In this document: positions 24,001 through 30,000 of the stretch, piece by piece
Layout: each line of letters begins with the position of its first letter
Numbering within the stretch: position 1 is the stretch's first letter
Virus record (IMG/VR): IMGVR_UViG_2609459850_000002
Source: a virus
Lineage: Duplodnaviria; Heunggongvirae; Uroviricota; Caudoviricetes
Length of the DNA stretch: 50,003 nucleotides
Strand: one strand, 5' to 3'
Made by a program: the position numbers

Positions 24001-27000
24001 CCACTGTCCTCCAACAATATTTCATCTTCATATCCGACGGAACAATACTTACCCTGCCGGGATGTACAGAATAACAACAGAGTGATAATTAATTTCTGAT
24101 GAAATAATCAGTGTGCAGAAGGACTAAAGATAAACGTTTTCTTCACGCCTTTACACGGCCTGTCCTTCTCAAATCGCCATTTTGCCATCGCCTTTACAAC
24201 CTGCTCATCAAACAGATGGTGCGGCTCTGAACGAATAAACTCAATTCGGGTGACAGTACCATCAGCACCAATATCAAACCTCACATCAACCCGTCCCTTT
24301 ATATAATTTGCCGCTGCATAGGCCGGATATTGTGGTAATGCCTTAACCAACTGTCGGGGCATATCTGTTTTATGTTGCGTACAGCCCATAACCAGAGAAG
24401 ACAACAAAATAATTAACGGAAGATTTCTTTTCATTTTCATTCCCCGCACAGATTAGAATAAGTCTTATTCTAACAATGCCGCCCTGTCGGTCATCAATCC
24501 TCTGCTTAATGGCAACGACAATTATCCGACTTAAATCACAAATCAGACACATGACATAACAGGGCTTGCGAGGTAACACATCGTCCTGTTTCTTCCACCA
24601 TCGCACCGGACTGGCGACTATGAGGGGACAACGCCGCGCTCCGTTAACGCGGTAAACCCCGGTGTGTATCGTTTTTGATTATCCCCGCACACTCGCGCAG
24701 AGGAGTCTCCCTGTCGGGCTGCGGTCTCTGTTAATGAGGGAATACAGCGACGATACGGCGCATCAGCAAAACTTAGTTCAGGCACTGAGTGCGGATATAG
24801 TCCTGTGCCCCTTCCAGCTGCTTCTGCATTGTCATCAACCGTTCTCTGAGGATGAAATAATCCCGTTCAGCGGTGTCTGCCAGTCGGGGGCCGGTTGCAT
24901 TATCCACGCCGGAGGTGCCGGTGGCTTCACGCACGGTACCGGAGCAGGTGGCGTTGATCCGCAGGCGCTTACGACCAGCGGCAACATCAGCACGCAGAGT
25001 TTCATTTTCAGCTCTCGCATCGGCTAATTCCCTCGAGTATCTGGCATCAAGTTCAGCGACATCACGCTGGCGTATCTGCATATCAGTAATTGTCGCGTTC
25101 GCCAGTTTCAGCTCACTGACTTTTTTATCGCGCTGCGCTTTGTAGGTGATGGCGTTATCGCGGTAATGATTCAGCCCCAGACTAAGCACACCACAGGCTA
25201 CCAGCAGGACAATAATCACCACACACAGAACACGGTTCATATCACCACCAACGGATTGCCCAGACCAGAACAGCAATGGCCACAATACGAATGGCAAATG
25301 CCATTGCCCGAATAAGTTCAGCACTCATCTTTTTAAAGTTCACGATTTCAGCGCAATGACCAGTTTTGCCAGCCCATACAGCATCGGAGACACAGCAATA
25401 CCAACAGCCACCCACTTAATAGCAAAAGCCAGCGCTCTGCTGATGTCATCAGTCACTGTCACCCCAGCAGCCCCGACGAAGACAACATCACCCAGGCGAG
25501 GGACAGAAAAAGAGCAACCAGCATTAGTGAAAATGAAATACCGACAATCACACACAGGACCTTTGCCGGCGTTATGAGTTTGTCTGACATAGCTACCCCT
25601 TAATTGCCACAATTAACTGGGATACTACCCATAAAAAAGGGATGCTCCAGACCAGCAAAAATTTCCAGTTTGGTAATTGACTAATCATGAGTCGCAACTC
25701 CCTAATCAGTTTGCTAAAATCAATCAAGGCAGCCTCCCATAGCTTACTGCCATAAAAACAAAACCCCGCTTGCTGCCAACAAACGGGGTTTTTACTTTTA
25801 TTCACTTACATTTTGCCAGTTCGCAGGATTTCGTGTTATCCGTCCGCCTTGGCCAACGTCATTTATTAGCAAAATATTCTGCTTATCTGTCGATTCCCCA
25901 GCACGCCAGCGCGCTCTCCTGGTCACGACGGGATACCTGACCGTAACAGTTATTTGAGCGAATACGGCAGTCCCTGCCACCGTCCTTAATCCACCAGCGA
26001 ATCGCCTCACACGCTCCCCTGCGATCACCTGCATTAATTCGTTTATAAAACGTCGACGGAAAACACTTACCGGGGCCAATGTTGTACGGACAGAATGACG
26101 CGATCCCCGCTTTCTGGGGTTCACTCAATGGCACTCTGATGTTTTTCTCCACCCATGCCAGCGCCTTATCACGCTCAATGGCGTTAACCCGGTCGCATTT
26201 TTCCTTCGACAACTTCATGCCCGGAACGACAGGTTTGCCATCCACCATGATGGCACCACGGCAGATGGTCCAGATACCTGCACCATCACGGTATGCCGTG
26301 GTGTGATTGCCTTCCTTTTCATCCAGAAACTGGTCGAGAATGTCAGGCGCAGGCGCACCAGCGGCAATCAGCGCCAGAACGGCAGCCGACAGGCCGTATC
26401 TGATTTTTGCGTTCATGGATATTTATCAGGATTTATCGGTTTCTGAGCCCTGGATATGTTTATCAGTTCCAGCCTGTTGCCTCAGGCTGCTAACAGGTCA
26501 ATACAATCATGAGGATTATTTATGGACAATAACACCATTTCTCTACAGGAGTTGCTCGACAGCATTTCCAGGCTTCGGGAAGACGTGAATACCCTTACCG
26601 TCGCCTTCTCATATCTGGCATTCTCAATTCCAAGGGAACAGATGCAATCAACGCTGGCATCAATCCAGTTTGAATCATGCAATCCCAAATGGTCTCAGGA
26701 ACAACAAGACTCTTTCAGGCGGCTTGCTGTATTACTGGATGAAAAATATGCTGGTAAAATTACCATTTCGGCGGACTCTTCAGAGAACCCGTAATTATTC
26801 CCGGTAGTTTTCCTCTGTAGGTTATCAACACATCCTGCGCCTCTAAAATTACGGGGCGCTTTTCCGGCGACTGCTCATCCCCTTCACATAACCCGGCAGC
26901 AACATCCAGGAAGACCTGTCTGATGCTCCTTCTGGCTGCTGCCTCATAAAACTCCAGTGCGGCACCTTCAACACGGTCCAGCGAGATGTCCAGGTCAAAA

Positions 27001-30000
27001 ATTTCACCGTCAAAGCGTTTTTTGTCCCGTAACGCTAAAGTTACCGTAACTTTATTCTCAAAATTGCGGATCCCTTTCACAATCAGTTCATAGTTTTGAG
27101 TCATTGAATTACTCTCCCCGTGCAGCCTTACGACGGTCCTCTCTGATTTTGAAATACAGGTTAGTCAGATATGTCAGCAGCCCAAACAGCAGACTCCCCA
27201 GCACGCCTATTGCCGCCCACTGAGACGGGGAAACCCTGTCCAGCAACTGCAGGAACCAGTAGCCCGTTCCCACCGCTGACGTGGTGTATGACACACCTGT
27301 TGTGATTTTTTCCATCTGGTACATACCCCGTCTCCCGTTATCCGGAAGCTGACAACAATAAAAAAAGCCACCAGTTAAGTACTGATGGCTCTGATAACTC
27401 ATGCAGGCATCTCAGACGACCCACTGACACTACCGGTGAGTTTAACGATACCTTCCATTTGACTGGCTCACTTTTTATGATGATGCCGGTGCATTTATCT
27501 CCAGCACCAGACTTTCTATCTCAACGCCATACGCTGCATTTTTGGTAATATCCGTCAGCGTCAGCGCATTCAGCCCCAGTGTCAGACTGTCTTTTATGGC
27601 CTGGAATGCCGGGCCAGCCACTCCATTCAGTTTCGGAGTAACCGTGGCACTGCCGGCGGTGAACACCAGCTCCAGCGTCTGCCAGTCGTTACTGTAATTC
27701 CCGAACTCGCCCAACTTTGTGTTTCCGGCTTTCTTGTGATGCATCAGATTCAGTTTGCCGTCTGTGGTCTGGGTGAAGAACGACATCAGGAACGGGTTAC
27801 CAGTCCCGGTCATCGCCACGACGTCAGGTAACGCTACATCGGTATACAGATAAATTCCCAGACCGAACTGGTTGTTGGTCAGTGCGCCTGACAGTCGAAA
27901 CTTACAGCTCAGTCTGCCACCCCGTGTCAGCAGGGAGACTGCGTCATCCACCGGATGCATCAGGGACCAGGTTTTATTGCTCTGCTTGGTAACCTTAAAC
28001 ACACCATCTTCCAGCGCAACACTGCCGCCGGTGATGGTCCAGCCCTGCGCAGCAGCCTCTCCGGCTGTCGGCAGCAGGGAGACTGTACGAACGGATGTGT
28101 CACCATCAGACGGCCCCGATGGCGTGTCGCCGCCGGGCGAGGGTTTAATCTCCGGTGCGGTACCGCTGATGAAGGCGCTGGTTCGACCAACTGCGTTCAG
28201 AATAGCGGTTGCCAGGCGATCCGAAATAATGCCCCTGCGCGCCCATGAACTGAAATGTGTCGGACGATTTGACGATACCCAATTACCATTACTACGGGAT
28301 TGCGCGCCGTAATAACCTGCATCAGCAATATCCGGGTCTTCTGCCGGTAAGTTGGTGGGCGTGTTGTTGCCGTTACCGTCGGTCATGAACGGCACAAAGA
28401 AAACGTTGTCGCTCTCCCTGTTTTTGTACGCGCCGTAGACGGAGTCATACTGTGTGCCGTATGTGTTTTTCCAGTAATACGTCGTGTCGCCACAAATCCA
28501 CGGTATAACTGCAGCACTGCCGCCATGGCACTGCGCGTTAAATCCGGAAAGGTCAGTACGGAACTGCTTCAGCATGGCCGTGAACAGGTCCGGTTGCTGT
28601 GCGTAGGTGGCAGCGCTCATGTCAAATTCGCCCTGCATCCAGCACACCGCCAGCAACACATTTTTCGGGTTCTTCTGTAATGCCGCTTTGGTGCGTGCGA
28701 TCAGGTCCTGATATAACGGTTTACCCACACCCCAGCGTGCCGAATCCTGGCTGGCCCCCGTGTCCGCACTGAATGTCCCCTCCGCGCCCTGGGTGAATGC
28801 CGAACCACCACGACAGCATGGTACCAGCAGGATCCCCGCGTTATTCGGGATATACGGAAGCAGTTTTTTGGCAATATGTAAGCCCTGGCCGACACAGCCG
28901 TACTGCCCTTTGCTCAGGTCTGCCTTCGGATGATTCAGTGCGCTCATATCCTGAACATCATGCAGGCAGTGGTCTGCCGGAATGATGTCGTTAAATGCGC
29001 ATGCTTTACCACCGGGAGTCACTGTGTTGCGACGGGCCAGTTGCTTAATGCGTGGGTGGGGCGCATCGTAAGAATCCGGAAGCGGAAGCCCTTCACCGTA
29101 AGCCATGGCATTGGATTGCCCGGCCAGTACGATGACGTAGTACCACTCCGGCTCAGTTGCACCACTGACGACCACATCACCTTCTGCTGCAATCGCCTGC
29201 ATCAGGGTATAAGGGGTTATGGCCACCGGACTACCAAACGGCTGCCAGCCCTCTTTCAGTTTATGTGTCAGCTTTTCCGCAAGATCTGACGGCGACGCCG
29301 CCCTGACAACATCATAGTGTTTAAATGCCATGGTTCTTTCCACCATCTGAAAAATGATTCTTTAAAATACCTGACATGTAATACAGAAAAAACACAAAAC
29401 CATACCTTAAATAAAAACCTCATCATCAAGCAGATATGCATGGATAAACTACAAGACGAGATATAAACCACCCTGCATTTAAATAAACAATAAACAACAT
29501 CAGAAAAATAATTCTGCTCTATGGTTTACAATCAAAAATATCATTTATACTTTTCAGAACATCACCAGCAAGGCATAAACAAGGAAACTAAATGAAGTGG
29601 ATTGTGATTGATACAGTTATCCAGCCATCATGCGGAATATCTTTTTCAGTCATATGGAGTAAAATAAAATTAATAATCTGGTATCAATCGGATGCTTTCT
29701 TACCTCCTGAAAGTATATTTACACTGACTCACACAGGCATCATGCTCAATAACAAAGTGCTACCTGTAACCATTTACAACGTAGTACCATTCAATAAAAC
29801 ATTATGGAATTTAATCAAAAACAGCCAGGAATGCCCTACAAATACAGATAACGTATTGAATGAATGCTTTAATAACCGTTGCACTCTGCAAATATGTCCT
29901 TATGGGCTAAAACAACAAAGTCCATAAGCAGTTTACTCACATCTGACAAAATCAATATAAACAGCCCCTCCGGAGAGGGGCTGGAGAGTGGCGCTATGTG

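Follow-up and report, generated by a model that had tools for sequence, protein, structure and literature searches.

Lambdoid phages carry morons, autonomous accessory genes located between late genes, such as lambda bor (on the opposite strand, beside Rz), lambda lom, and HK97 gp15; the concept reportedly goes back to Juhala et al. in 2000. Convergent regulatory pairs with overlapping 3′ ends are known as well, including lambda cII and the oop RNA, P22 ant and sar, and type I toxin-antitoxin (TA) systems such as txpA/ratA. In anti-CRISPR and anti-defence loci, diverse small open reading frames (ORFs) stand behind a conserved promoter and beside a conserved marker gene. Here, we have analyzed a locus with likenesses to all three, which lies in a stretch of 50,003 nucleotides (nt) of viral DNA (Caudoviricetes; IMG/VR record IMGVR_UViG_2609459850_000002), the whole of which is called the window below. 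The window represents an Escherichia coli lambdoid prophage with its late region on the minus strand, in which two small genes, ydfR and the plus-strand ORF90, converge between the genes for a holin (S) and a lysozyme (R). In the Qin prophage of E. coli K-12, the same slot between a class II holin and a lysozyme is occupied by another ydfR. Fragment 1-72 of K-12 YdfR binds RNase E at its catalytic domain, and co-purification of RNA was reported alongside this binding (PMC13232886).

The reading that we prefer, with a probability of roughly 0.55, is that the S-R interval combines the late gene ydfR with ORF90 as the cargo of a family of antisense cassettes, the product of ORF90 being likely an accessory factor of the lysogenic phase. 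The original prediction had described a gene of 114 amino acids (aa) starting 4 nt past the holin stop, a 90-aa plus-strand gene with a good ribosome-binding site, and a convergent overlap of about 35 nt. These details proved exact: ydfR starts at that distance, with a Shine-Dalgarno (SD) sequence (GGGGAGAG) within the 3′ end of the holin gene; GAGGA stands 6 nt ahead of the ATG of ORF90; and the overlap measures exactly 35 nt, the last eight ORF90 codons being the antisense of the ydfR tail. The homology searches proposed at the same time assigned ydfR to DUF1327 (Pfam PF07041, E = 7e-43, 145.2 bits where the gathering threshold is 25) and ORF90 to phrog_2411, which it matches over its full length (residues 1-90 of 90, E = 1.1e-58) and which is also matched by the distant members P0186 and P0194.

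Comparison of homologous sequences indicates that ORF90 is under purifying selection at the protein level. The ratio of nonsynonymous to synonymous divergence (dN/dS) between lineages is 0.2-0.36 at dS 0.35-0.6, the corresponding pooled polymorphism ratio (pN/pS) is 0.26 over 82 cassette-specific codons, and substitutions at codon positions 1, 2, and 3 number 56, 29, and 129. No frame other than that of ORF90 is open throughout the seven diverged homologues; as expected, the same ratio results for the antisense frame with common wobble positions, which is interrupted by stops at places that differ between homologues. Both the start context and the length of 90 aa are preserved, the latter down to about 71% identity, and an invariant core motif (...LR..VN.L..AFSYL.F...) is retained within the family at 25-40% identity. 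This family is small and almost limited to Enterobacterales, with 62 homologous proteins recovered by a word-indexed search and 20 clusters (50% identity) in a set of 1.84 billion representatives. The protein is acidic (isoelectric point 4.5) and hydrophilic (grand average of hydropathy -0.43) and has no transmembrane segment; its AlphaFold2 (AF2) model comprises four helices at moderate confidence (predicted local distance difference test, pLDDT, 67), and the fold matches are generic only. There was nothing similar in PDB sequence profiles, neither Pfam nor NCBIfam has a family for it, scans with protein patterns of distant members were negative, and neither ORF90 nor ydfR matched any PADLOC or TA family; a Mip-like assignment was considered and rejected, the NCBIfam match being insignificant (E = 0.037). 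Among the searches made, nothing points to a known activity of ORF90.

The contexts of its distant relatives place ORF90 in a wider family. In every phage context, such a relative is antisense to late genes and converges at its 3′ end, by overlap or abutment, on an ORF of 62-85 aa. P0186 (38% identity; locus L099) is found between gpM and gpL in a siphophage tail cluster, the homologue in L215 just after the gene for tail protein I (gpI), P0185 near lysis and terminase genes, and the homologue in L102 near terminase. The convergent partners in L084, L085, L215, and L102 are mutually homologous (phmmer E-values of 1e-6 to 4e-3 among 697 ORFs), and a hidden Markov model (HMM) built from these four finds the partner in L099 (E = 0.009), the partner in L104 ranking next (E = 0.27). 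Several partners terminate in an ITGSL-type motif, like the YdfR tail in the window. The regions upstream of the distant ORF90 homologues are more conserved than the proteins themselves and carry canonical leaders that score 40-90 bits against model R1, a covariance model of the leader with its hairpins 1 and 2.

From 5′ to 3′, the canonical leader consists of TAnnnT-N6-TCAGCCC, hairpin 1 with its variable stem, hairpin 2, and the real SD sequence. The arms of hairpin 2 resemble SD and anti-SD sequences (GAGG, CCTC); its loop is invariant (GGATGGCTGATTA), and in the canonical cassette the arms flank the conserved loop GGAUGGCUGAUUA. Copies were gathered with a gapped pattern of two conserved leader blocks, which returned 57 contigs of genomes representing about 50 species of Enterobacterales (some six more, from other phyla, look spurious) and, from metagenomes, over 120 contigs; a plain 15-mer scan of viral contigs gave mostly chance matches, with one true match in 120. 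In a first test on five sequences, hairpin 2 was 96.7% paired with three pairs changed on both sides, and in an alignment of 50 sequences it was conserved and hardly covaried. Hairpin 1, which sits in an unconstrained gap of the search pattern, showed compensatory changes in seven of its eight pairs in this alignment and was 92.8% paired, compared with 29-48% in a slid-partner control over the whole structure; its G-U pairs point to an RNA made from the cargo strand. An additional pairing between 5′ UCAGCC and the loop sequence GGCUGA is possible, both sequences being fixed by the pattern. The window region and related loci gave no Rfam match, and no relevant paper was found for the loop sequence in the searchable literature; the family of structured-leader cassettes appears to be undescribed so far.

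Two further features of the leader region were noted in passing. The loop of hairpin 2 holds AUG GCU GAU UA(A/C), which gives a three-codon mini-ORF (MAD-stop) in some copies and MADYL... in others. Upstream of the -10-like block, cassettes (L229-L365) share TACTGTTCGAATATCAGGATG, which is reminiscent of a LexA box; inspection by eye led us to reject a LexA-box reading of TACTGT...CAG, the spacing being CTG-N9-CAG and not N10.

Other cargo is found in the S-R slot itself. YdfR176/183/211 are convergent with an 86-aa ORF (phrog_2572), which they overlap by 53 nt, and in Stx2 phage 86, YdfR268 faces a convergent 104-aa ORF (phrog_1853) whose end is 10 nt away; the 90-, 86-, and 104-aa antisense families are mutually unrelated by BLASTP and by hhalign (probability <1%). 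Model R1 matches directly upstream of the 104-aa ORF (44 bits, 9e-8), upstream of the 86-aa ORF (21.9 bits, 0.006, and 17.3 bits, 0.066), and in L084, L085, L104, and L215 (40-58 bits), none of these sequences having been in its training set.

A census was made of 147 elements, each defined as a TAnnnT block followed by an ORF of at least 60 aa. Their cargo ORFs form 26 BLASTP clusters, one of which is the ORF90 family. With a query set limited to tail, terminase, and lysis genes, a recognizable late gene was present within 3 kb of 84 of the cassettes, and it lay on the opposite strand in all 84. Insertion occurs mainly between gpM and gpL and between gpI and gpJ, and also near terminase and between S and R. 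In 99 of the 147 cassettes, an ORF of 45 aa or more runs convergently and ends between -80 and +60 nt from the cargo stop; it overlaps the cargo in 81. The HMM of the coiled-coil partner recognizes 41 convergent ORFs, compared with one of about 2100 other small ORFs at the same loci. Just past the cargo promoter block, a terminator-like hairpin is present on the late strand in 73 of 114 cassettes and on the cargo strand in 7 of 114, and a terminator-like site on the cargo strand follows within 350 nt of the cargo stop in 60 of 131. The locus in the window has the same layout, i.e., a cargo ORF antisense to a late operon and a convergent sense ORF that overlaps its 3′ end. No cargo matched a known defence or anti-defence family. 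The largest cargo cluster encodes a 73-aa protein (...DVTALKVAFGLLF...) that looks remotely related to ORF90, and another recurrent family (e.g., among the L244, L254, L275, and L279 clusters) comprises proteins of 87-89 aa with the sequence MHYLHKR...NCSHQCN...GYWN...

The second gene of the interval, ydfR, consists of two parts. According to the AF2 model, its DUF1327 core is built from strands 5-14, 18-27, and 34-43 and a helix 50-73. Over residues 1-74, it shares 81% identity with K-12 YdfR; beyond this point the two proteins are unrelated, the K-12 protein having a 29-residue helical C-terminus and the window protein a 40-residue ITGSLKxPP tail that overlaps ORF90; considering this identity, the core of the window protein probably binds RNase E and RNA as K-12 YdfR does. 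The tail is modelled with pLDDT <50 and is conserved in 26 YdfR114/116 proteins. Since K-12 YdfR is homologous only up to residue 74, the equivalent of residues 74-113 can be traced separately in L086 (see below), and partners have ITGSL-type C-termini, we infer that the tail may be the remnant of a sense-strand partner ORF of the cassette that became fused to the DUF1327 core. Homology between tail and partners is suggested by a short motif and by position. A regular expression for the C-terminus matched 6 of 1680 ORFs, all of them partners, which serves as illustration only, the expression having been derived post hoc. In the longer YdfR forms, the C-terminal extensions include a coiled-coil segment that shares homology (E = 6e-9) with a stand-alone ORF of 63 aa from Citrobacter, where this ORF lies next to, and converges with, a homologue of ORF90.

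Related loci reveal where the parts come apart. L002 lacks ORF90 and retains the tail, the last eight ORF90 codons, and what is left, in mutated form, of the first leader block, as if ORF90 had been deleted and had left a scar; since the same overlap sequence persists there without the gene, the junction of the module should lie inside the final codons of ORF90. In L086, the DUF1327 core is missing and ORF90 is intact (73% identity); between holin and ORF90, this locus has the first 17 codons of a coiled-coil ORF together with a frameshifted remnant that ends ...GKLPGRITGSLTVPPEC and is equivalent to residues 74-113. Phage phiSTEC1575-Stx2k (L090) keeps holin, ydfR, and ORF90, followed by a different lysis module in place of the SAR (signal-anchor-release) lysozyme. 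In K-12 Qin, the order is essD-ydfR-rrrQ with no antisense gene, and ydfR overlaps or abuts rrrQ. On the basis of the L002, L086, and phiSTEC1575-Stx2k variants, leader, ORF90, and tail (approximately 26417-26882) appear to behave as a module separable from the DUF1327 core and from R. Two side observations concern these loci: in L086/L087, a ParE-like toxin/ParD-like antitoxin pair just downstream of the lysozyme (1589-2123) forms a separate accessory module, and L090 contains a second, unrelated lysis set (1285-2322) of two holin-like genes and an M15 metallopeptidase.

The locus is ordinary, common, and already annotated. At least 80% of the interval is present in 1115 of 5426 complete E. 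coli genomes (about 20%), and a partial match, mostly to the ydfR portion, in 4358 of them; RefSeq annotates the arrangement as 'YdfR family protein', 'hypothetical protein', 'lysozyme', and 'class II holin'. Absence from related prophages and a lack of coding-type conservation had been named as grounds for abandoning the proposed pair, and the opposite was found, both in this distribution and in the pN/pS of ORF90. Among 50,697 phage records, ydfR occurs in 101, including H-19B, BP-4795, and many Stx1a/Stx2c phages, and ORF90 in three. In the expectation that S and R are adjacent in phage 21-type lysis cassettes, the original prediction was right about the type of cassette and about the two extra genes within it; adjacency as the norm was overstated for these phages, because ydfR stands between S and R in K-12 Qin, H-19B, BP-4795, and the 101 phage records.

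Like morons, ORF90 is inserted between genes that are closer or adjacent in relatives (K-12 Qin; L002) and shows presence/absence polymorphism, and the base composition of the insert differs from that of the flanking genes (guanine-cytosine content of 41% for the leader, 45% for ORF90, and 46% for the ydfR core, versus 53% for S and 54.5% for R). Like lambda bor, it is oriented against the late operon, and an accessory role in the lysogenic phase would be expected. Unlike morons, many unrelated cargo genes share one promoter-like block and one structured leader, the cassettes are antisense in 84 of 84 cases with a recognizable late gene, a convergent overlapping sense ORF is often part of the unit, and for ORF90 in the window neither its own promoter nor its own terminator could be demonstrated by scans.

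These comparisons suggest the following model. The gene ydfR would be an ordinary member of the late operon, translationally coupled to the holin, and ORF90 would be the cargo of a mobile antisense cassette family of Enterobacterales prophages. A canonical cassette would comprise the promoter-like block, the structured leader, and a swappable small ORF (from at least 26 unrelated families), often together with a convergent, 3′-overlapping coiled-coil ORF co-oriented with the late genes and a late-strand terminator beyond the cargo promoter. The cassette in the window would be partly decayed, hairpin 1 being gone and the partner reduced to a 40-residue tail on the DUF1327 core, and it is this fusion that would make ydfR and ORF90 converge with an overlap of 35 nt. 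A weak promoter of its own might drive ORF90 as long as the late operon is off (during lysogeny or early in infection), and head-on, Q-antiterminated late transcription together with antisense or duplex RNA might silence the gene. Its product would then be a lysogeny-phase accessory ('moron') protein outside the lysis machinery and not one half of a TA pair; an exclusion-type role, which had been suggested before, or another accessory role expressed in the lysogen is possible. As in cII/oop, ant/sar, and txpA/ratA, two units face each other with complementary 3′ ends, so that silencing by interference or duplex RNA is plausible. Unlike in those pairs, both ydfR and ORF90 encode conserved hydrophilic proteins, and neither a small hydrophobic toxin nor a non-coding antisense RNA is involved.

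Several observations weigh against ORF90 as a lysogeny-phase cassette cargo. Its timing and silencing are read from orientation. A search of the whole window with model R1 gave no match at E < 2, a local search reached 6.4 bits at 26447-26524 from the promoter block and the SD sequence only, and a -35 element was seen neither in the window nor, as a conserved feature, in the family (at best, 2-3 of 6 positions matched). A terminator of its own, which would be expected of a moron, was not convincingly found after ORF90 (fold z-score of -1.2 relative to shuffles). The leader invariants TCAGCYC and GATGGCTGATTA are fixed by the search pattern, and 63 of the 147 cassettes had no recognizable late gene within 3 kb under the limited query set. 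Comparison of the YdfR tail with stand-alone partners, by tail HMM and phmmer, was not significant (E = 0.66). Two family members are found in non-phage chromosomal contexts; P0192 and P0197 are such chromosomal relatives, P0197 lying between dinI and bssS, and at the loci L101 and L106 model R1 found no match at E <= 0.1 and thus no detectable canonical leader. The leader of the window retains the block CCCTGGATATGTT...TTCCAGCC and has lost hairpin 1; a consensus sigma-70 scan upstream of ORF90 gave no match, the -10-like TATGTT being retained, and the fold is no better than that of shuffles (z-score of 0.13). By its sequence, the window copy is best described as a degenerate derivative of a leader-led cassette and not as a canonical member.

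A bolder version of the cassette idea is put forward tentatively, as doubtful in its full extent. It holds that temperate phages of Enterobacterales possess a mobile system of gene cassettes not described before, with the antisense ORF as one of its cargoes, in which a conserved promoter block and a structured leader RNA of about 100 nt drive hypervariable small proteins (possibly for exclusion or anti-defence) from the strand facing the late operon, inward-facing terminators insulate the unit, a convergent sense-strand partner is coupled to it, and transcriptional interference together with duplex RNA hard-wires expression to the decision between lysogeny and lysis. By analogy only, hypervariable small cargo behind a conserved control region, a recurring neighbour, and a prophage setting are reminiscent of anti-CRISPR loci. 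Unlike those loci, the cassettes have no 'aca'-like regulator with a helix-turn-helix domain, and their recurring neighbour is the convergent coiled-coil ORF.

The recurrence of this neighbour also lends itself to a different explanation, namely that the convergent products form a functional pair, in which an ORF90 effector made in the lysogen (for exclusion or defence) is neutralised by the late partner or by the YdfR tail once the phage itself enters the lytic cycle, in the manner of self-immunity or of a TA system. The frequency of convergent and overlapping small ORFs near the cargo stop, the concentration of one coiled-coil family among them, the mutual homology of the partners in L084, L085, L215, and L102, the match of their HMM to the partner in L099, and the conservation of the YdfR tail would all fit. 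We regard such a pair as unlikely: ORF90 is intact where the partner is a pseudogene (L086) or absent (chromosomal sites), the tail persists without ORF90 in L002, the same partner family accompanies unrelated cargo so that specific co-evolution is not evident, and there are no PADLOC matches. The related proposal of a small TA-like module is not supported. Type II systems are a poor fit to two convergent genes that do not form an operon, match no PADLOC, TA, Pfam, or NCBIfam toxin-antitoxin entry, show no obligate co-occurrence, and are each found alone, and type I systems to a hydrophilic ORF90 in a locus where both strands encode conserved proteins.

The overlap could also be an accident of mosaic recombination that left ORF90 as a decaying, functionless passenger. 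A junction inside its last eight codons, a degenerate leader in E. coli, frameshifted or truncated copies (P0061 and several shorter clusters), and the scarcity of ORF90 relative to ydfR in phage records are in line with this. We nevertheless judge it improbable, considering the between-lineage pN/pS of 0.2-0.35 at dS 0.35-0.6, the preserved length and start context, the presence in about one-fifth of complete E. coli genomes, and the family-wide recurrence of the convergent 3′ overlap.

A role in lysis timing, the first of the functions originally suggested for the antisense gene, would have the gene or its transcript tune lysis, with plus-strand RNA pairing with the S-ydfR-R mRNA and altering the expression or processing of R or ydfR. 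ORF90 does lie inside the lysis operon, it is fully complementary to the late mRNA in the 343-nt spacer between ydfR and R, and YdfR, for its part, has been connected with RNase E and RNA. This is very improbable in our view, and the ORF90/ydfR pair is probably not a lysis regulator: ORF90 relatives and cassettes occur mostly in tail clusters and sometimes in the chromosome, only 3 of the 84 cassettes with a recognizable late gene lie beside a lysozyme, ORF90 is selected at the protein level and stays intact where R is replaced by a different endolysin module, and many S-ydfR-R cassettes do without it. Finally, the idea that ORF90 is no gene but a frame that happens to be open on the strand antisense to the late transcript, for which one might cite the lack of a Pfam or NCBIfam family and the moderate AF2 confidence, is effectively refuted, as far as sequence comparison can tell, by the dominance of third-position substitutions, the single frame open in all homologues, and the core motif kept at 25-40% identity.

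Taken by itself, the window yields a modest result, a gene pair that is real, common, and annotated. Beyond it, the lengths of the YdfR family (103, 114, 116, 176, 183, 211, and 268 aa) can be explained by a DUF1327 core fused to pieces of partner ORFs. If the cargo genes encode lysogeny-phase factors for exclusion, anti-defence, or host modulation, the leader would be a cheap sequence handle with which many of them could be found, and the convergent architecture provides a testable model of how prophages might shut such genes off upon induction.

The coordinates of the features discussed are collected in Table 1.

Table 1. Features of the S-R interval and its surroundings in the window, with two chromosomal relatives of ORF90 (positions of the latter refer to their own loci).
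Feature	Position	Strand	Description
Rz	24773-25240	-	late region
Three tiny annotated ORFs	25242-25590	-	28, 51, and 43 aa; phrog_3246 and phrog_6632 families
Lysozyme R	25883-26416	-	177 aa; Pfam PF00959, E = 1.3e-23; RefSeq 'lysozyme'
ORF90 upstream region	26417-26521	+	degenerate leader copy, by block alignment with canonical leaders
Leader element CCCTGG	26448-26453	+	
Leader element TATGTT	26455-26460	+	-10-like
Leader element TTCCAGCC	26467-26474	+	
Leader element GAGGA	26511-26515	+	SD
Possible leader helix	26470-76 with 26483-89	+	CAGCCTG/CAGGCTG
Possible leader helix (alternative)	26473-78 with 26492-97	+	CCTGTT/AACAGG
ORF90	26522-26794	+	90 aa; phrog_2411; antisense to late operon
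ydfR/ORF90 3′-3′ overlap	26760-26794	both	35 nt
ydfR	26760-27104	-	114 aa; ATG at 27104, stop 26762-26760
ydfR C-terminal tail, residues 75-114	26760-26882	-	ends ...GKLPGIITGSLKSPPKW
ydfR core, residues 1-74	26883-27104	-	DUF1327 beta-beta-beta-alpha domain; predicted translational coupling to holin
Class II (phage 21 S-type) holin	27109-27324	-	71 aa; PF04971, E = 2.3e-32; RefSeq 'class II holin family protein'
NanS-p-type esterase	27475-29346	-	late region, 5′ of holin
ORF90-family gene	L101 4001-4294		non-phage chromosomal; one of L101/L106 adjoins a P-type ATPase fragment
ORF90-family gene	L106 3001-3279		non-phage chromosomal; one of L101/L106 is flanked by dinI and bssS, with rne and pyrC upstream

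On the minus strand, the late genes follow one another in the order Q antiterminator, tRNAs, NanS-p-type esterase, class II holin, ydfR, lysozyme R, three tiny ORFs, Rz, and terminase. The holin has a dual start, M1/M4 (MYQM, read off the sequence), and a TAA stop at 27111-27109, and the N-terminus of R (MNAKIRYGLSAAVLALIAAGAPAP), as read from the sequence, is hydrophobic, rich in Ala and Gly, and SAR-like; the cassette has the features of a phage 21-type pinholin/SAR-endolysin system, SAR behaviour being predicted. The chromosome of NCCP15648 is 100% identical to a 721-bp query (26400-27120), and most of its annotated features within 6 kb either side of the query were found exactly in the window.

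A few observations concern the neighbourhood at large. The minus-strand late region contains other plus-strand genes, namely iraM (anti-adapter, 29592-29927) and a gene of the YlcI/YnfO family (23776-23976); upstream of both, the cassette leader is absent (model R1, zero window matches). Between the esterase gene and the holin start, and within the Q-dependent late transcript, lies a terminator-like site (27392-27364, minus strand) with a 12-bp stem followed by TTTTTTTATT. Between lysozyme R and Rz, an insert of approximately 640 bp makes this lysis cassette non-canonical at a second place, and at least two of its tiny ORFs carry a hydrophobic, membrane-like segment.

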